From assembly GCA_963775315.1 (NCBI GenBank), contig CAVZIN010000010.1:101268-165267 (forward strand): 64,000 nucleotides of DNA, read 5' to 3'. Numbering within the stretch: the first letter of the stretch is position 1; every line of letters starts with the position of its first letter. The notes below the pieces were generated by a model. That model worked only from the letters and a program-made list of their open reading frames with translations, was not told the origin of the DNA and searched no databases. Source of the stretch: an uncultured Alphaproteobacteria bacterium. GTDB taxonomy: Bacteria > Pseudomonadota > Alphaproteobacteria > MPNO01 > DASWLB01. Both the position numbers and the translations under genes were made by a program. Positions 13,720 through 64,000 of this stretch are shown here, piece by piece.

Positions 13720-15105
13720 CTAGCTTGCCCGCTTCACGCCGACGCGCGCCGCGCCGGACCCGCAGGCAAGCTCGATGGCGCCGACGATCTCGGCCACGAC
13801 GTTGCCGATCAGTACCTCGTCCTCGCCCTCGGCCATCACGCGGATGACCGGCTCCGTGCCCGACTTGCGGATCAGGATGCGGCCGCTGGCGCCCAGCCGG
13901 CTCTCGCCCGCTTTCACCGCCTTCTGGACCGAGATTTCCTCGAGCGGCGTGGCGCCGTTGCCGAACCGCACGTTGCGCAGGAGCTGGGGCAGCGGGGTGA
14001 ACATGCGCCCCACCTCCGAAGCCTGCTTCCCGGCGCGTACCACGCAGGCCAGGACCTCGAGCGCCGCGATCAGCCCGTCGCCGGTGGTGTTGTAGTCGCC
14101 GAGGATGATGTGGCCGGACTGCTCGCCGCCCACGTTGAAGCCACCGGCGCGCATCTTCTCGACGACATAGCGGTCGCCGACCTGCGTGCGCACCAGCGCG
14201 AGGCCGAGGCTCCCGAGGTAGCGTTCGAGCCCCAGGTTGGACATGACGGTCGCGACGAGCCCGCCGCCCTTGAGCCGCCCCTCGCGCTGCCAGTTGCTGG
14301 CGACCATGGCCATGAGCTGGTCGCCGTCGAGCAATTCTCCATGCTCGTCGGCGACGAGCACGCGATCGGCGTCGCCGTCGAGGGCGATGCCGAGGTCGGC
14401 GCCGTGCTGCCGGACGGCCGCCTGCATGGCCGCCGTATCCGTCGAGCCGCAGCCGTCATTGATGTTGAAGCCGCTTGGCTCGACGCCGATCGGAACCACC
14501 TCGGCGCCCAGCTCCCACAGCGCGAGCGGAGCGACCTTGTAGGCGGCACCATGCGCGCAATCGATGACGATCTTGAGCCCGTCGAGCCGGTAGCCGCGCG
14601 GGAACGTGTTCTTGGCAAACTCGATATAGCGGCCCTCGACGTCGTCCAGGCGGCGGGCGCGGCCGAGCCGGGCCGGCGTCGCGAGGGCCTCCGCGAGCCC
14701 ATTGTCCATCAGCCGCTCGATCTCGGCCTCGGCCTCGTCCGACAGCTTATAGCCGTCCGGGCCGAACAGCTTGATCCCGTTGTCCTCGTAGGGGTTGTGC
14801 GACGCCGAGATCATCACCCCGAGATCGGCGCGGAGCGAGCGGGTCAGCATGGCGACGGCGGGCGTCGGCATCGGGCCGGCGAAGGTGACGTCCATCCCCA
14901 TCGAGATGAAGCCGGCGGCGAGCGCCGGCTCGAGCATGTAGCCCGACAGCCGGGTGTCCTTGCCGATCACCACGGTGTGGCGATGGTCGCCGCGCGTGAA
15001 CAGCTTGCCCGCCGCCATCCCGACACGGAGCGCCACCTCCGCCGTCATCGCGCCGGCATTGGCCGTGCCGCGAATCCCGTCGGTTCCGAACAGCTTGCGC
15101 GTCAT
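13720..15105 (-). CDS. glmM: Phosphoglucosamine mutase
   Basis: [34 protein letters not shown]; folP-glmM synteny. Confidence 0.96.
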
Positions 15106-58066: not shown

Positions 58067-59365
58067 TCAGAACCTGAGGCCGGCGTTCAGCATCACCGTG
58101 CCGTCGAGCTGACGGCCCGCGTCGGGGTCGGGCGCGAGCGGATCGCCGCGCCCGACGCTGGCGCTCAAGGTGAGGCGCGTCGCCTTGCCCGGCGCCTTGG
58201 GCATCAGCGGGCTGAAATCGAGCGAGGTGGTGAGGCGCCAGTCGCTGCCTCCGCCCGCCGGCTCGAGATGCATGGCGAAATGGGCGACGTCGATCCCGGC
58301 CGACACTTCCGGGAAGTCGGCCGACCGGTAGGTGAACCCGAGCCCGCCGCCCATGATGTCCGCAGCCCAGGCCGGTGCCGCGCGTGGCGCATCGCGCGAC
58401 CCGTAGCCCAGCCGGAATCGGGCTTTCCAGCGATCCCGCGACAGCTCCTCGCCGAGCGTGAAGGTGCGGCCGCCGCCGGCCGAGCCGTCGGTGTCTTCGG
58501 TCTCGGCGCGGGCGTAGCCGAGCCGCGTCGTCACGGGGCCCCAGCGCCAGTCGAGGGAATAATTGTCGTCGAGTTCGCCGAGGCGCGAGGCGACGCTGCC
58601 GTCGCCGGAATCGACGCTGACGGAGCGCCGGTCGGTGCGGCCATAGGTGATGCTGGCCGGCAGCAGCCGGCGCGCGAGCGGATCCGGCGGCCGCAGCGCG
58701 GCGAGCGACAGCTCGACCTTCAGTTGGTCGCTGTGGTCGTCGACGACGGGCGCCCCGTTGCGGCCGTCGGCGTTCGTTTCCGAACGGTCGTAGCCATAGC
58801 GCAGCGACAGAGCGTCGAACGCGGCCACCACGCCGTAGCCGACGGAATCCTGGTCGGGGCCGAGCCCATCTTTGTCGAGCCGGAAGCGCTGTCCCGCCGA
58901 TCGGTGCCGGCCATAGGCCGAAAGATGCGCCGCGCCGTCCTTGAGCACGTCGACCTCGACGCGCTGGCGGCTCGCCCCGTCCTCGATGCCGGCGCTCTCC
59001 TCCGCGGTGGGATCGATCTGCCAGGGCTCGACGGCGGCGCCCGGCCCGTCCGGCACCGCGGGGCCTGCCGTCGCCCCGTCAAAGCCGGAGATCACGCGGA
59101 CCCGGTCGTCGAACGCAGCGAACCGAATCTCGCCCCCATAAACCTTGTCACCCGCGGCATCGGGGACCGTGTCGGGATCCCGCTGCACATTGCCCGCGAT
59201 CTTGACGGAAAGGAGATCGGCGCCGATCAGGTCGCCTTGCACGGCGACCGGGCCATCGGCCTGGGCCATAGCGGCCGTGAGCCAGACCGTCGTCCCGATG
59301 CAGAACGGCACAACGGCGGACCAAACGAACCCGGTCCTGCGCCAAACGACGCGAATGGCGGTCAC
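58067..59365 (-). CDS. Hypothetical exported protein, possible outer-membrane beta-barrel
   Basis: Signal-peptide-like N-terminus (AMA-Q), amphipathic beta-strand patterns, terminal Phe (LNAGLRF). Confidence 0.55.
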   Translation of the reverse strand: MTAIRVVWRRTGFVWSAVVPFCIGTTVWLTAAMAQADGPVAVQGDLIGADLLSVKIAGNVQRDPDTVPDAAGDKVYGGEIRFAAFDDRVRVISGFDGATAGPAVPDGPGAAVEPWQIDPTAEESAGIEDGASRQRVEVDVLKDGAAHLSAYGRHRSAGQRFRLDKDGLGPDQDSVGYGVVAAFDALSLRYGYDRSETNADGRNGAPVVDDHSDQLKVELSLAALRPPDPLARRLLPASITYGRTDRRSVSVDSGDGSVASRLGELDDNYSLDWRWGPVTTRLGYARAETEDTDGSAGGGRTFTLGEELSRDRWKARFRLGYGSRDAPRAAPAWAADIMGGGLGFTYRSADFPEVSAGIDVAHFAMHLEPAGGGSDWRLTTSLDFSPLMPKAPGKATRLTLSASVGRGDPLAPDPDAGRQLDGTVMLNAGLRF

Positions 59366-59464: not shown

Positions 59465-59767
59465 TTAACGGCCGGTAAGCGTCGACACGCCGCGGTCGAG
59501 CGCAGCCAGCACCGCGCGATGACGCGCGAGCGCCCGAAGAAAGGCCGATTTGTTGCGCCGGTGGCGGTCGTTCAGCCGCTCGATACGCGCCAGGTTCTCG
59601 GCAACCGCCCGGTCGCTTTCGCGAATCAGCCGCTCGATCGCGCCGACCGTCGCCTCGAGCCGTTCGGCCGCCAGGGCCGACCGGCGCCAGGCCCAGGGCG
59701 GCAACACATCATAGCGGCGCTCGAGCGCGTCCATCCGCGCGAGCCGCGCAATTGGTTCGGGACGCAT
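59465..59767 (-). CDS. Small Arg-rich helical hypothetical protein under the PL-like promoter
   Basis: GGAGG RBS; strong promoter with operators directly upstream. Confidence 0.6.
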   Translation of the reverse strand: MRPEPIARLARMDALERRYDVLPPWAWRRSALAAERLEATVGAIERLIRESDRAVAENLARIERLNDRHRRNKSAFLRALARHRAVLAALDRGVSTLTGR

Positions 59768-59796
59768 GGCGCCTCCCCCTCCGATTCACAACGACA

Positions 59797-59847
59797 ATTA
59801 TTACGCTTTTCGCAATCTTTGTCAAGGAAAATTGCGAATGACGTAAC
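59797..59847 (-). promoter_or_regulatory. PL-like promoter with two repressor operators
   Basis: Minus-strand TTGACA(59825-20)-N17-AATAAT; operators ATTACG-N5-CGCAAT (59800-16) and ATTGCG-N5-CGTAAC (59831-47). Confidence 0.75.
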
Positions 59848-59867
59848 ATCCGGACGTATGCGACGGG

Positions 59868-60491
59868 CTAGCCGCGGAGCCGATGCCACATCACCGGGGC
59901 GATCCACTCCAGCTCGACGTCGTGCTCGATCGGCACCGCCGCATTGATCGAGACGAGGGTGAAGACGCCGGGCCGCGAGCCGCGCTCGAGCAGCTTCACC
60001 AGCTTGCGCCCGTCGACGGTCTGGACCACGCATTCCGTCCCGTAGCAGCGCTCGGGGTTCAACCCGCGCTCGCGCGAATAGCCGATCAGCTCGCCGTCCT
60101 TGAAGCGCGGCGCCATCGAGTTGCCCCGCACCTTGACGGCGAACCCGCCGTCGCCTTCGTCCGGTGGCGGCTCGATCTCGTCCATTCCCGCGCCTTGCGA
60201 ATGGTCGTCCAGAGCGAAGATCGTTTCGCCCGCGCCGACATAGCCGACGACCGGAATCCGCCGGCGGACCTGGACGGCCGCCTTGCCGAGCCGGGCCACC
60301 ACCTCGTCGAGCCCCGTCTCCAGGAACTCGGCGATGTCGACCGCCTCATCGTAGGACACGCGCCGGCGCTTGTTGAGAATCTCGGTGACGCGCGCGGCAT
60401 CGAGCCCGAGATGGGCGGCAAGTCCGCGCTGGGACTTGCCGAGCGTTCTCAGCCGATCCTGGAACCACTGCTTGTCGGGCGCGCCGGTCAT
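59868..60491 (-). CDS. CI/LexA-like repressor (HTH plus S24 peptidase)
   Basis: HTH SQRGLAAHLGLDAARVTEIL; VGAG cleavage site; GNSM serine and VK lysine. Confidence 0.9.
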   Translation of the reverse strand: MTGAPDKQWFQDRLRTLGKSQRGLAAHLGLDAARVTEILNKRRRVSYDEAVDIAEFLETGLDEVVARLGKAAVQVRRRIPVVGYVGAGETIFALDDHSQGAGMDEIEPPPDEGDGGFAVKVRGNSMAPRFKDGELIGYSRERGLNPERCYGTECVVQTVDGRKLVKLLERGSRPGVFTLVSINAAVPIEHDVELEWIAPVMWHRLRG

Positions 60492-60497
60492 GAAACC

Positions 60498-60585
60498 AGT
60501 ATGCCGGCGCAATGTGACCTGCGCAACGAAAAATTGCGTATAGCGCAATATTGGCTTGACATGAAATTGCGAATACCGTAATGAT
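60498..60585. promoter_or_regulatory. Divergent PRM/PR-like promoters with three operators
   Basis: Minus: TTGCGC-N17-CATACT, 6 nt before the cI ATG. Plus: TTGACA(60556)-N18-AATGAT. Operators at 60511-27 (degenerate), 60533-49 (perfect ATTGCG-N5-CGCAAT) and 60566-82. Confidence 0.78.
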
Positions 60586-60591
60586 GTCACC

Positions 60592-60891
60592 ATGACGAGC
60601 ATGGTCCCCGGCCGCATCGCGGCCCATGCGGAGAAGGTCCCGACGGACCTTCCCCGCCTCGCCCCATCCTCCGGTCCCGACCAGGCGCCCGACGAGGGCG
60701 GGTGCCGCTTCATTGCTGCCGATGTCGACTGGCGCCGGTGGTCCTATTGCGGGCGGCCCGTGGCGCGCGGCGCCTGGTGTCCCGCGCACGACGCGGCGGT
60801 CCACCGCTGGCGCGGCCTGATGGAACGCCAGCGGCTGGGCGAAGAGATCATCCGCCGCATGGCCGAGGGAGAGACCGATGAGCAGCCCTGA
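60592..60891 (+). CDS. GcrA C-terminal-domain-like small protein
   Basis: CRF...YCG...WCPAH pattern resembling GcrA CRWP...FCG...YC..H; no N-terminal HTH. Confidence 0.6.
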   Translation: MTSMVPGRIAAHAEKVPTDLPRLAPSSGPDQAPDEGGCRFIAADVDWRRWSYCGRPVARGAWCPAHDAAVHRWRGLMERQRLGEEIIRRMAEGETDEQP

Positions 60892-61414
60892 CGCAGCCGG
60901 CCGCACGCCTGCCAAGGACCGGCCCTGGGCCATCGAGAACCTGCCGATCCCGGGCGGGCGCATCGCCGACCTGGTCAGCGAGGGGGACCCGGATTGCCGG
61001 CCGGTCGCCCATCACCGCGTGGTCGACACGATCGGCCTTCTGGAGCGCAACGGCACCATTACGCCGGACATGGCGATGGCCGCCGAGGCGTTCGCCCGCG
61101 ACTTCCGCACCGCCCACCTCGCCGGGATCCGAACCGCCTCGCTGATCCGCGTCGATTCCTCGCGACGTCCCGAGCGTCCGCACGGCAACGAGGGCGCGCG
61201 GCGGCGCGTGCTGCGCGACATGGAAGCGCTCGGCGGCCTCGGCGCACCGGGGGCCCAGGCGGTGTGGCACGTGGTGGGGCTCGAAGAGTCGCTGCGTGAG
61301 TGGTCCCACAGCGACGCGTGGCAGGGAAAGCCGATCCGGTACTATGCGGCGCAAGGCGTTTTGGTCGCCGCGCTGGGGGTCTTGGCTCGGGTACGCAGCG
61401 CCGCGAAGTTCTAG
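60878..61414 (+). CDS. DUF6456 family protein (GafZ/GafA-C-like putative antiterminator)
   Basis: IT..M..A...F..DF, ARRRV...ALGG, VWHVVG...SLREW, QGVLVAALGVLA. Confidence 0.7.
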   Translation: MSSPDAAGRTPAKDRPWAIENLPIPGGRIADLVSEGDPDCRPVAHHRVVDTIGLLERNGTITPDMAMAAEAFARDFRTAHLAGIRTASLIRVDSSRRPERPHGNEGARRRVLRDMEALGGLGAPGAQAVWHVVGLEESLREWSHSDAWQGKPIRYYAAQGVLVAALGVLARVRSAAKF

Positions 61415-61425
61415 GAATAAACAGC

Positions 61426-61454
61426 TTGACAAGTGCTGCGCCATAGTCTAAAAG
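61426..61454 (+). promoter_or_regulatory. Late-type sigma70 promoter P1
   Basis: TTGACA-AGTGCTGCGCCATAGTC-TAAAAG. Confidence 0.6.
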
Positions 61455-61471
61455 GGGCCCTACACTGTGAC

Positions 61472-61511
61472 AAAGGGCCCGCTGAAACTCAGGCTGAGCG
61501 GGCCTTTTTTT
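61472..61511 (+). terminator. Intrinsic terminator T1 directly after P1
   Basis: GGCCCGCT...AGCGGGCC stem followed by T7. Confidence 0.8.
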
Positions 61512-61551
61512 GTTTCCCCACAGGAGCGTGGCGTCGTTAGGATTTTTATCC

Positions 61552-61580
61552 TTGACAAGCGCTGCACCATAGTGTATAAC
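61552..61580 (+). promoter_or_regulatory. Late-type sigma70 promoter P2 (duplicate of P1)
   Basis: TTGACA-AGCGCTGCACCATAGTG-TATAAC. Confidence 0.72.
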
Positions 61581-61654
61581 CCGCGTCACGGTCGAGACGA
61601 GGGCCCCGCGGCGAAACTCTTGCCGGAGCAGCCACCGGGTCCCCTATCCGCCGC

Positions 61655-61703
61655 GGGAGAGATCCCCTAGCCTGGGTAGGCGCGGGTCTCTCCCTTTTCT
61701 TTT
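61655..61703 (+). terminator. Intrinsic terminator T2 in the terminase leader
   Basis: GGGAGAGATCC...GGGTCTCTCCC followed by TTTTCTTTT. Confidence 0.7.
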
Positions 61704-61712
61704 CGGCCATTT

Positions 61713-61744
61713 ACGGCGCCCCTTGCGGGCGCCGTTTTCTTTTT
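61713..61744 (+). terminator. Intrinsic terminator T3 in the terminase leader
   Basis: ACGGCGCCC-CTTGC-GGGCGCCGT followed by TTTCTTTTT. Confidence 0.8.
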
Positions 61745-61765
61745 CCAGCCACAGGACCGGAGCCA

Positions 61766-62029
61766 ATGTCGGACAGGACCGCCCGAGCCGGAGAGACTCG
61801 CGCCGCGCCGCCAAGCCCGCTCGACGTGCAGCTCGCGACCATGCGGGCGCTCTTCGCCGCCGCGAAGAAGAGAGGGAAGATCGTCGACATCGAACTGGCG
61901 CGCCAGGCATGCGACATCGCCAAACTCGCCGCGCCCTACGTACACGCCCGCCTCGGCACCACGGAGCCGGCGCCCGAAGCGCGGGTGCGTCACGAGGACG
62001 TGCTCGACCAGCTCGATGGCCCGTCGTGA
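61766..62029 (+). CDS. Putative terminase small subunit
   Basis: 87 aa with SPLD..L..MR and AAPYVH.RL; GTGA-coupled to the large subunit; GGAG RBS. Confidence 0.6.
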   Translation: MSDRTARAGETRAAPPSPLDVQLATMRALFAAAKKRGKIVDIELARQACDIAKLAAPYVHARLGTTEPAPEARVRHEDVLDQLDGPS

Positions 62030-63576
62030 ACGAGCTGAAAATCCCGCAGCGCCGCCGGCTGAAGGGGGACTTCCCGCTCTACGCGGAGAAGTGCCTGCGC
62101 ATTCGGCCGAAATCGGGCGGGCTGGTGACGTTCGCGCTCAACCCGGTCCAGCGACGCTTGCACCAAGCCGCCGAGGCGCAGCGCGCGCAGACCGGGCGCG
62201 TGCGGGCGATCGTGCTGAAGGCGCGCCAGCCGGGCGTTTCAACCTATGTCGAGGGACGGTTCTACTGGAAGGTGACCCACCTGAAGGGCGTGCGCGCCTA
62301 TATCCTCACCCATCGCGACCAGGCGACCAACAACCTGTTTGCCATCGCCAAGCGGTTCCATGACAACTGCCCCGTCTCGGTGCGGCCGGAGTTGCGCGCG
62401 TCGAACGCCGAGGAGCTGGAGTTCGGCGCGCTCGATTCCGGCTATCGGGTCGGCACGGCCAAGGCAGCGGGTGTCGGCCGGTCGGACACGATCCAGTTCT
62501 TCCACGGGTCGGAGGTGGCGCAATGGCCGCGCGCCGACGAACACGCCGCGGGCGTGCTGCAGGCCGTCGCTGAGGCGCCGGACACGGAGGTCTGGCTGGA
62601 ATCGACGGCGCGCGGCGCGGGCGGGCTGTTCCACAACCTGTGGCGCGCGGCCGAGGCGGGCGAGAGCGGCTATCTCGCCCTGTTCGTGCCGTGGTTCGAG
62701 CACGCCGACTACCGCGTTACGCCGCCGCCCGGCTGGGCCGCGCCGCCGTCTTTCGCCGAGTACGGCGCGCTGCACCGGCTTGCGCCCGACCAGCTTCACT
62801 GGGCATGGGCGAAGAACGCGGAGATCGCGGGCGCGGCCGGGCTCGGCACCGACGAGCCGTGCTGGCGCTTCCGCCAGGAATACCCCGCCGACGCGGGCGA
62901 GGCCTTCCGCGCGAGCCGCACCGACGGGTTCATCGCCCCGCATCTGGTGCTCCGCGCGCGTGACTTCGTGCCGCCACCGCAGGACCACGCGGCGCTGGTG
63001 ATCGGTTGCGACTTCGCCCGCGGCGTACGCGACTGGAACTGGTTCGTCGACCGCCAGGGTCGCACGGCCGGCACCAAGGTGAACGAGCGGTTCCATTCGG
63101 ACGATATCGAGGACATCGCGGGCCGGCTCGCCCGCATCGTCGACCGCACAGGCCCCGCCATGTGCTTTCTGGACTCGGGCGGCGGCGGCGCGGCGGTGCA
63201 CGACATATTGCGCGCACGCGGCTACGGCCGCCGGCTCGCCCTGGTCAATTTCGGCGGCGCGCCGCGCGACGTGCGCCGCTGGGCGAACAAGCGGGCCGAA
63301 ATGTGGGGCGAGCTGCGCGACTGGCTGGCCGATCCCGGCGGCGCGTCGTTGCCGGACGACGACGTGCTGGACGCCGAGCTGACCGCGCCCGGCTTCCGCT
63401 ACAACGCGAACCAGCAGGTCGTGCTGGAGGACAAGGAATCGATCCGGGCCCGGCTGGGCAGCTCGACGGATGGCGGCGACGCCCTCGCTCTGACCTTCGC
63501 CGCCCCGCTCGGTCCGCCAACCTTGCGTCGCACCGCGCCGCGGAGTGAGGGCGGCTACGCCGTCCACGGCTGGTAG
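62026..63576 (+). CDS. Terminase large subunit
   Basis: Q motif LNPVQ, Walker A LKARQPGVST, Walker B FHGSEVA, ESTA coupling motif, nuclease IGCD / LDSGG / STDGGDALALTFA. Confidence 0.9.
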   Translation: MNELKIPQRRRLKGDFPLYAEKCLRIRPKSGGLVTFALNPVQRRLHQAAEAQRAQTGRVRAIVLKARQPGVSTYVEGRFYWKVTHLKGVRAYILTHRDQATNNLFAIAKRFHDNCPVSVRPELRASNAEELEFGALDSGYRVGTAKAAGVGRSDTIQFFHGSEVAQWPRADEHAAGVLQAVAEAPDTEVWLESTARGAGGLFHNLWRAAEAGESGYLALFVPWFEHADYRVTPPPGWAAPPSFAEYGALHRLAPDQLHWAWAKNAEIAGAAGLGTDEPCWRFRQEYPADAGEAFRASRTDGFIAPHLVLRARDFVPPPQDHAALVIGCDFARGVRDWNWFVDRQGRTAGTKVNERFHSDDIEDIAGRLARIVDRTGPAMCFLDSGGGGAAVHDILRARGYGRRLALVNFGGAPRDVRRWANKRAEMWGELRDWLADPGGASLPDDDVLDAELTAPGFRYNANQQVVLEDKESIRARLGSSTDGGDALALTFAAPLGPPTLRRTAPRSEGGYAVHGW

Positions 63577-63584
63577 TCGCGTCC

Positions 63585-63938
63585 ATGCGCGCCATCGCCG
63601 TGTTCCACGACCACGGCGGCGGCCGGCTGCGTCCGTTCCTGCGGCCGGGCTTCCGCCATGTCTTCTGCGCCGTCCGGAGCGGCGCCTACTGGATCGTCGT
63701 CGACGGCCGAAACGGCCTGCCGGAGATCGAGGTGGCGGCGGGCGCCGAGATCGACCTCGCCGCGTTCTATCGCGGTCTCGGCTACAGCGTGGCCGAGATC
63801 GCCGCCCTGCCGCGCCCGCCTCGCCAGCCCGTCGCGCTCGTCACTTGCGTCGGCGCGGCGAAGCGCGTGCTGGGCGTGCGTGCGCCCTTCGCCCTTACGC
63901 CCTACCGGCTCTGGAAACGCCTATCCCACCCAGAATAG
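63585..63938 (+). CDS. Hypothetical phage-associated protein
   Basis: LRPGFRHVF...W...TCV...KR.LG...TPY.LW; directly follows the terminase. Confidence 0.6.
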   Translation: MRAIAVFHDHGGGRLRPFLRPGFRHVFCAVRSGAYWIVVDGRNGLPEIEVAAGAEIDLAAFYRGLGYSVAEIAALPRPPRQPVALVTCVGAAKRVLGVRAPFALTPYRLWKRLSHPE

Positions 63939-63947
63939 GAGGCCTTC

Positions 63948-64000
63948 ATGTCGTCTCTGTTCAGCCCGCCCTCGCCGCCCATGCCACCGCCGCCAGCGCC
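63948..64000 (+). CDS. Pro-rich small virion-associated protein, partial
   Basis: AGGAGG RBS; MSSLFSPPSPPMPPPPAP..., runs off the window. Confidence 0.5.
   Translation, partial: MSSLFSPPSPPMPPPPA

Follow-up and report, generated by a model that had tools for sequence, protein, structure and literature searches.

What might a bacterial chromosome retain in a phage-like locus where an immunity-type repressor switch is joined, over little more than a kilobase, to DNA-packaging genes? The question is raised by the right-hand end of a 64,000-nucleotide stretch of DNA, here called the window, from an uncultured Alphaproteobacteria bacterium (contig CAVZIN010000010.1, positions 101,268 to 165,267; C10:101268-165267 of genome G000 in our numbering). 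The genome is a metagenome-assembled genome (MAG) of 4.49 Mb in 12 contigs, with ~69% G+C, and was compared with those of three congeneric species (G001-G003) and of one other genus of the family (G004). Because all reading frames are open at ~69% G+C, genes were called by third-position G+C (GC3). The sequence was read 13 kb past the window end to recover the rest of the element; positions prefixed L008 refer to C10:160268-180267, and addition of 59000 converts them to window coordinates. The element occupies ~16.4 kb in this genome (~17 kb in its congeners) between a CBS-domain gene and tRNA-Pro, and its G+C and GC3 resemble host values. From its gene content and conservation, we consider it rather probable that this is a host-maintained, non-autonomous, podovirus-derived particle locus that works as proposed below, and we regard it as a good candidate for a gene transfer agent (GTA) of a new kind, carried by a family of uncultured soil bacteria; that it represents a true GTA lineage is a more tentative suggestion.

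Repressor switch, late-control leader and particle genes

A first-pass annotation of the window had read a gene order running from a repressor switch through a GcrA-C/DUF6456 pair and a leader to terS and terL, and each of these open reading frames (ORFs) was found in place. Within 59465-64000, orf100 is preceded by a PL-like promoter, next to which stand a repressor gene encoding helix-turn-helix (HTH) and S24 domains, four 17-bp operators, and a PR-like promoter that reads into orf99 and a DUF6456 gene. The repressor (207 residues; 59868..60491, minus strand) is of the cI/LexA type, with matches above cut-off to HTH_3 (28.9 bits) and Peptidase_S24 (44 bits), and is assigned to phrog_4, "transcriptional repressor" (3.6e-21). 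It is 92-94% identical in G001-G003 and is the most constrained gene of the element (ratio of nonsynonymous to synonymous substitution rates, dN/dS, of 0.04-0.07). No variation was seen among the four species of the genus at residues A87-G88, in the G-N/S-S125-M stretch or at K166; by resemblance to known motifs, A87-G88 is the putative cleavage site and S125/K166 the putative catalytic dyad. Sequence searches of the PDB with the repressor, orf99 and the DUF6456 protein returned no useful relative, the lambda repressor appearing only at E=0.22, and the repressor gave no usable alignment with a LexA or cI of solved structure.

The operators are 17-bp palindromes, two on the left (59800-59816, ATTACGCTTTTCGCAAT; 59831-59847, ATTGCGAATGACGTAAC) and two on the right (60533-60549, ATTGCGTATAGCGCAAT; 60566-60582, ATTGCGAATACCGTAAT), that flank or overlap PL and PR. 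Their pattern, ATTRCG-N5-CGYAAT, has three exact matches in 64 kb against 0.01 expected, all within the switch, and the site at 59831-59847 is a fourth with one mismatch; four of four species of the genus conserve both the half-sites and the -35 hexamer. The PL-like sigma-70 promoter (59797..59825, minus strand; TTGACA, 17 nt, AATAAT) matches the consensus at 11 of 12 positions and lies between cI and orf100, and the PR-like promoter (60556..60585, plus strand; TTGACA, 18 nt, AATGAT) matches at 10 of 12. Both are among the three promoter-like sites returned by a promoter scan, against 0.2 expected. Orf100 (59465..59767, minus strand) is a small ORF rich in Arg that occupies the place of lambda N, a leftward early gene. 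Its GC3 of 0.81 marks it as a real gene, and it is kept in G001-G004 and in two metagenome contigs at 53-68% identity; neither Pfam nor PHROGs gave a family match, and a language-model search gave no usable match. The immunity region of phage lambda shows the matching layout, in which an N-position gene is read leftward from PL/OL, followed by cI and by OR/PR reading rightward into a cro-position gene.

Orf99 (60592..60891, plus strand) stands in the cro position and has a conserved C..CG..C..H core (C-x14-CG-x8-C-x2-H). The first-pass annotation had called it GcrA-C-like, a description for which we found leads and no family match. BLASTP aligned orf99 with a host GcrA-C-like ORF of 86 residues (E=0.001 over 36 residues), and the best three language-model neighbors among the matches listed are small, often viral clusters with the GcrA family in 15-53% of their members, at scores (0.88-0.89) below the 0.9 mark. 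Orf99 did not match the Pfam GcrA family (PF07750) even at E<=1, and a genome-wide PF07750 search matched three other places, orf99 not among them. The core may resemble the GcrA C-terminal domain, and we treat this as a lead only. The 86-residue ORF is itself a stand-alone gene on contig C9 (L052:1564-1824, plus strand) whose match to the GcrA family is confined to the C-terminal part of the profile (PF07750 67-152), and it is separate from the full-length GcrA on contig C7.

The gene that follows (60878..61414, plus strand) encodes a DUF6456-like protein of 178 residues (GafA C-terminal/GafZ family; PF20057), and is the sole such gene in the genome. PF20057 matches five of five orthologues of this protein (E<=2e-5, best 2.3e-6). 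A DUF6456 profile search recovered 1378 proteins at E<=0.001 among 8000 candidates scored, and most proteins among the matches listed carry PF20057. An AlphaFold model of the protein (mean predicted local distance difference test score 73.6) had no Foldseek match in the PDB at E<=0.001, and a complex prediction for orf99 with the DUF6456 protein scored 0.01 and was used neither for nor against binding. GafA homologues are annotated as DUF6456 in one study (PMC9638019), and two others describe GafZ as homologous to the GafA C-terminus (PMC11150451, PMC9632790) and as an antiterminator that reads through terminators, with a binding element between the -35 and -10 hexamers (PMC11150451). By analogy, the DUF6456 protein is presumed to be a late-gene activator or antiterminator. 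Relatives of it are encoded by 242 IMG/VR contigs, and the family is therefore not GTA-specific. In two full-size viral contigs (L149 and L152), the DUF6456 gene directly follows helicase and primase genes, and is itself followed by small-terminase and tail-lysozyme-like genes in L149 and by ParB-methyltransferase genes in L152. This is where a late regulator would sit, and proteins of this family may act as late regulators in temperate phages generally. The element looks like a phage of the L149/L152 type from which the early and replication region between the cro position and the late regulator has been removed.

Between the DUF6456 gene and the next ORF lies a non-coding leader of ~350 nt, in which the promoters and terminators predicted by the first-pass annotation were recognized as one promoter motif present twice and three hairpins with T-runs. 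P1 (61425..61453, plus strand) is the first copy of the 29-nt late promoter motif (CTTGACAAGYGCTGCRCCATAGTSTAWAA), and P2 (61551..61579, plus strand) is the second, with a -35 of TTGACA, a 17-nt spacer that contains GCTGCAC, and a -10 of TATAAC. These are the only two occurrences of the motif in the 4.49-Mb genome at <=3 mismatches, and no further copies that would be a sign of accessory loci were found at that threshold. A simple promoter scan missed both, as their -10 hexamers are without the final T. T1 (61472..61515, plus strand) is a hairpin ahead of a seven-T run, found by terminator scan and kept in G003 and G004; T2 (61655..61703, plus strand) is a long hairpin followed by TTTTCTTTT, recognized from the fold and conserved; and T3 (61713..61745, plus strand) is a 9-bp GC hairpin followed by TTTTCTTTTT, again found by terminator scan. 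T2 and T3 begin ~75 nt after P2, and the fold of their region has z = -3.4; the terminator scan itself gave four sites against 1.8 expected, which is not an enrichment. G003 and the other genus (G004) both keep the whole P1/T1/P2/T2/T3 array together with its spacer element, GCTGCRC. An Rfam scan of the element matched only the tRNA, and the leader matched no known RNA family. The array is like that of lambda Q, PR' and tR', where a strong late promoter is followed by terminators that need a promoter-loaded antiterminator. Unlike lambda, the element has no O/P, int/xis or cII/cIII, its putative antiterminator is of the DUF6456 family rather than Q, and its late promoter is duplicated.

The leader ends at an ORF of 87 residues (61766..62029, plus strand) that overlaps the start of terL and is a small-terminase (terS) candidate by position only; it has no family match in Pfam or PHROGs, and its homologues lie upstream of terL in L040, L042, L055, L081 and L119. 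The large terminase gene terL (516 residues; 62026..63576, plus strand) is assigned to phrog_2 (2.9e-23), with no Pfam match. The KARQxGxST-type terminase named in the first-pass annotation is recognizable in its Walker A stretch, KARQPGVST, which is invariant in four of four species. Only orf99 and the DUF6456 gene lie between repressor and terS, and the distance from repressor start to terS start, put earlier at about 1.3 kb, measures 1.27 kb. After terL come the conserved orf117 (63585..63938, plus strand) and a Pro-rich "MSSLFS" ORF of 73 residues (63948..64169, plus strand) that crosses the window end at 64000.

The remainder of the element (L008:5170-16955) is, as judged from family matches, a podovirus-type head, tail and lysis module. 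It opens with a T7-type portal (PF12236, 1.5e-118), a Bbp19-like protein, a scaffold/protease-like protein of 274 residues (L008:7123-7947; phrog_3742) and the capsid (PF19821, 1.2e-62). Two small ORFs separate the capsid from tubular protein A (phrog_394, 3.5e-55), which is followed by tubular protein B, the nozzle (phrog_376, 1.7e-200), and by a fibre gene of which the C-terminal part is present. Genes for small membrane proteins and then an Rz-like spanin (phrog_1275) lie at the right end, before tRNA-Pro(CGG) (L008:16879-16955, minus strand), which is preceded by a strong hairpin and forms the right border. An ORF of 199 residues after the capsid (L008:10210-10809) is paralogous to the scaffold-like protein over the C-terminal half of the latter, both matching phrog_3742, and the same pair cross-matches at 36-40% in all three congeners.

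The first-pass annotation had noted a host-like left flank and no replication, recombination or integrase gene in the window, and Pfam scans agree; none was present within 59465-64000. Across the whole element, with all ORFs scanned against Pfam and/or PHROGs, no replication, recombination or integration family was matched, serine recombinases not having been searched as a family. Of the 23 genomic matches to the integrase family PF00589, none is closer to the element than 37 kb, and a search for a tRNA-derived attachment (att) repeat at the left end gave only chance-level matches of 9-14 nt. The locus thus has the chromosomal phage-like structural, packaging and lysis genes of a GTA and is without means of self-replication, excision or integration, and the integrase, att sites and replication module between switch and late genes that mark an intact lambdoid prophage are absent. 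The further annotation proposed earlier for the DNA downstream gave the same picture, of a podovirus head, tail and lysis module running to tRNA-Pro with no integrase, att site or replication gene. A capsid-forming satellite, akin to a phage-inducible chromosomal island, was also considered and rejected, as the element has neither integrase nor primase and carries tail genes.

In the mechanism that we propose, the HTH+S24 repressor would bind the four operators and keep PR and PL shut. Its inactivation, probably by RecA-stimulated self-cleavage, would allow PR to express orf99 and the DUF6456 protein; the latter would engage RNA polymerase at P1 and P2 via the spacer element GCTGCRC and let it pass T1, T2 and T3 and transcribe the genes for packaging, structure and lysis. 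The element would retain only the immunity switch, the late-control unit and a rightward block of ~14 kb from terS-terL to the lysis genes. Phages and viral contigs with a related terL or portal are 32-43 kb long, the best isolated portal matches being 33-36 kb. Because the element has no means of excision or replication and is less than half the size of these related phages, a full head would have to hold host DNA, either as random fragments (GTA-like) or as headfuls running from a pac site into the neighboring chromosome. Host-level selection would have maintained intact genes from a time before the split of the family into its five known species.

Distribution, inheritance and selection

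TerL was found in four of the four other genomes of the family, at 83% identity in G001-G003 and 73-77% in G004. All three congeners carry the whole element between the same flanking genes, with 81-84% nucleotide identity in the structural block and homology resuming at the tRNA. In G004, orf100, cI (82%), orf99, the DUF6456 gene, terS and terL are on one contig and the portal (78%) on another. A test of conserved synteny had been suggested by the first-pass annotation, and its outcome was positive, with the same locus in every congener and the switch-to-terL order kept in the second genus. On G004 contig C268 (L041:1149-3933), the place of the portal after terL, orf117 and the MSSLF ORF is taken by ~5 unrelated ORFs, through either an altered gene order or an insertion. 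The six metagenome contigs that encode a DUF6456 protein 65-72% identical to that of the window all show the compact switch-to-terminase order, and in one of them orf100 directly adjoins the CBS gene. Those relatives that bear a name are MAGs of uncultured Alphaproteobacteria or Rhodospirillales. Elsewhere in the order, across its four remaining families, terL matches are weak or partial (8 of 36 genomes); those in G011, G017 and G026 were rejected as copies of the same element, since they cover only the N-terminal region of terL or occur in a rearranged order. In G026 (L036; C32:25000-40776), portal, Bbp19-like and scaffold genes precede a terL of 54-57% identity at the contig end, a permuted order.

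Codon alignments of G000 with G001-G003 were used to compare the element with its host flanks, the concatenates comprising genes with clean orthologues in all four species; the fibre was excluded, and genes broken or partial in any genome were dropped. Eight element genes (2230 codons) have a synonymous divergence (dS) of 0.50-0.65 and dN/dS of 0.15-0.17, and 14 host flank genes (4312 codons) have dS of 0.47-0.57 and dN/dS of 0.23-0.26. Gene by gene, dS is 0.24-1.5 in the element (~0.35-0.7 for the large structural genes) and 0.32-0.88 in the flanking host genes. The closest pair by dS is G002-G003 in element and host sets alike, and maximum-likelihood trees of element and host flank share the topology ((G000,G001),(G002,G003)), with bootstrap values of 92% and 100%. 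Constraint is evident in the capsid (dN/dS 0.06-0.11), terL (0.17-0.19), portal (0.16-0.18) and nozzle (0.15-0.16), and is least in the C-terminal part of the fibre (0.58-0.70). Both the vertical phylogeny and the dN/dS below 1 for terL and cI that the first-pass annotation had named as tests were thus obtained. Matching dS, agreeing trees and low dN/dS together indicate that the element is old, vertically inherited and under purifying selection, a pattern that neither repeated independent integration nor a remnant without function would readily explain.

Repeated integration would be expected of a still-mobile minimal temperate phage, or a helper-dependent satellite, that entered each species separately at tRNA-Pro and drew on integrase and replication functions in trans. 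A shared locus in different hosts would follow from site-specific integration at a tRNA, and the fibre (37-57% identity) and lysis genes are variable, like those of circulating phages. We nevertheless judge such separate entry to be very improbable. No att repeat was found, the four species of the genus all share identical borders at both ends, and dS of the element follows that of the host pair by pair, with congruent trees. The closest IMG/VR relative has 68% terL identity and the closest isolated phage 42.5% (portal 37-38%), and no close free-phage form of the element was found in IMG/VR or among isolated phages.

The rapid evolution of the fibre also bears on what a host-maintained particle might do. 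A domesticated particle could serve purposes other than gene transfer, as an SOS-triggered device for altruistic lysis that releases cell contents or as a particle that kills competitors. A conserved lysis cassette and a fast-evolving receptor-binding fibre fit antagonism, and the S24 repressor suggests damage-induced firing. Terminase, portal and capsid, however, are as conserved as the tail, and would be superfluous in a device purely for killing or lysis; we consider a role of this kind unlikely. A gene for ComEC is present in G000, but also in 10 of 14 control genomes, and is uninformative.

Damage, variation and neighboring genes

Several observations weigh against a maintained particle locus. 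One is a perfect inverted repeat of 599 nt in G000 (L008:12174-12772 vs 13957-14555; window-equivalent 71174-71772 and 72957-73555), in which an internal piece of the nozzle gene recurs, 100% identical and reversed, directly after that gene. At the position of this copy, G001-G003 have two virion genes (phrog_4177/308 and phrog_418) and the first ~270 codons of a fibre of 552 residues with a T7-fibre-like N-terminus; in G000 the two small virion-protein genes are replaced by the copy, and the fibre gene is without ~270 N-terminal residues. Either the rearrangement took place very recently or the repeat is an artefact of assembly. Next to the tRNA, the congeners encode a holin, a protein of 177 residues and a lysozyme (PF00959, 7.8e-29), in place of which G000 has unrelated small ORFs and spanin-like genes; the lysozyme has no homologue in G000 save a stretch overlapping the tRNA, and no endolysin was found there. 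The right-end lysis genes thus differ between species, which is phage-like mosaicism. A 0.9-kb insertion between scaffold and capsid, with an ORF of 204 residues (L008:7989-8603, minus strand; phrog_9155), is present only in G000 and absent from G001-G003. Frame breaks affect the portal and capsid genes of G003 and the scaffold gene of G002; host genes are also broken in these same long-read MAGs, and the breaks may be sequencing errors. The G000 copy, for its part, looks recently damaged.

Other points on the same side concern the evidence at large. The sample is small (five genomes, all MAGs, and six short contigs), and particle formation and the packaging of DNA are predictions from the genes. 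The DUF6456 protein of the window scores 25.2 bits against the PF20057 cut-off of 26.3, i.e., 1.1 bits below it; DUF6456-like was also the wording of the first-pass annotation. Finally, ordinary prophages also have DUF6456 regulators, cI-type repressors whose catalytic residues are intact, and sites adjacent to a tRNA.

Much of this would be expected of a cryptic prophage remnant, in which a temperate podovirus at tRNA-Pro lost its integrase and early genes and has since decayed slowly, retaining only a repressor that confers immunity, or nothing useful. The adjoining tRNA, the truncated fibre, missing lysozyme and scaffold-capsid insertion of G000, the frame breaks in G002 and G003 and the mosaic right end are all consistent with such a history. 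DNA without function, however, should drift toward a dN/dS of 1 and be deleted, whereas at least 13 structural genes have remained open and collinear after a dS of ~0.5-0.65, at per-gene dN/dS of 0.06-0.3 as against 0.23-0.26 in the flanking host genes, and the regulatory DNA is conserved across genera. We therefore regard a decaying remnant as rather unlikely compared with a host-maintained particle locus.

The element is bordered on the left by host-like genes for an enoyl-CoA hydratase, an OmpA-family protein, an extracytoplasmic function sigma factor, a cyclase, a PEP mutase, an M24 peptidase, an amidohydrolase and the CBS protein, and tRNA-Pro is followed on the right by ispB, a DUF2007 gene, a methyltransferase gene, glyS and ppdK. 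Directly downstream of orf100, on the same strand, lies a gene for an outer-membrane-like protein of 432 residues (58067..59365, minus strand), with a signal peptide and a C-terminal Phe, and no Pfam match. Among 41 genomes searched it occurs only in the four of its own genus, where it evolves fast (44-51% amino acid identity; dN/dS 0.46-0.63), and in metagenome contig L230 it is missing between the CBS gene and orf100. It may be a moron of the leftward operon, and its membership of the element is uncertain.

Relation to known gene transfer agents and podoviruses

In Caulobacter crescentus, as described in two studies, RogA represses gafYZ, and GafYZ turns on the GTA cluster (PMC9632790, PMC11150451). 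The locus described here is similar in that an HTH+S24-fold repressor would, by analogy, control a DUF6456-family (GafZ-like) regulator, and in that GCTGCRC elements lie in the spacers of P1 and P2, as in the GafZ promoter, ahead of three terminators and a long particle operon. The two differ in arrangement, with repressor, activators and cluster at separate loci in Caulobacter and at one locus here. RogA is without catalytic residues, whereas the repressor of the element keeps Ser/Lys- and Ala-Gly-like residues, and the Caulobacter particle is of the Rhodobacter capsulatus GTA (RcGTA; siphovirus) type, as opposed to the podovirus-type genes found here. No GafY-like gene was recognized in the element, orf99 being a different small protein.

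Like RcGTA and its activator GafA, as portrayed in PMC9638019, the element combines a DUF6456-family activator with a cluster of ~15 kb, no replication or integration genes, and vertical inheritance. The structural genes are not homologous, however, and RcGTA GafA is a fused protein, whereas the regulator here is short and stands alone. The domain GTA_TIM (PF13547) of RcGTA g15 had no match in the 98.7%-complete genome G000, with a Caulobacter control positive; together with the portal (PF12236) and capsid (PF19821) families, this bears out the earlier view of the head module as podovirus-like rather than of the RcGTA type. A parallel in chassis is FpGTA, a Firmicute element presented in a 2026 paper as the first podovirus-like GTA-like element described (PMC12946183). 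Both are GTA-like elements on a short-tailed chassis, a likeness by description; FpGTA differs in that it belongs to a Firmicute, is divided between two loci and has had its packaging shown experimentally, and no cI/GafZ-type cascade is reported for it.

Among phages, the particle genes are most like those of podoviruses with a T7-type portal (Pelagibacter podophages and BPP-1-like phages), which share the PF12236 portal, a Bbp19-like protein, the PF19821 capsid, tubular proteins A and B (phrog_394, phrog_376) and, in the congeners, a T7-fibre-like N-terminus. The resemblance is distant, with portal identity of 37-38%, and the element is half of the 33-36 kb of these phages and lacks genes for a polymerase, a primase and an integrase.

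Known GTA lineages are few, and none of alphaproteobacterial podovirus type was found in the literature searched; if it is a GTA, the locus would be such a case. One possible, if distinctly tentative, reading is that it represents a second, independent alphaproteobacterial GTA lineage, built on a T7/BPP-1-like podovirus chassis and governed in cis by a cascade from repressor to GafZ-type antiterminator to late operon, in which SOS-induced firing would package and spread host DNA. It might then be a living intermediate, and the dispersed RogA-GafYZ and GafA circuits might descend from a lambdoid immunity and late-control switch. Repressor, operators, GafZ-family regulator, promoters, terminators and particle operon all lie within 17 kb, with conservation that can be traced across species, and the locus ties a GTA-type regulator family to a phage origin through the DUF6456 genes that follow replication genes in L149 and L152. 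It also offers concrete parts for testing, namely a P2/T2/T3 reporter, the 17-bp operators and a predicted self-cleaving repressor, and opens a way to look for the mobilization of host DNA in soil viromes for a bacterial family known only from MAGs.

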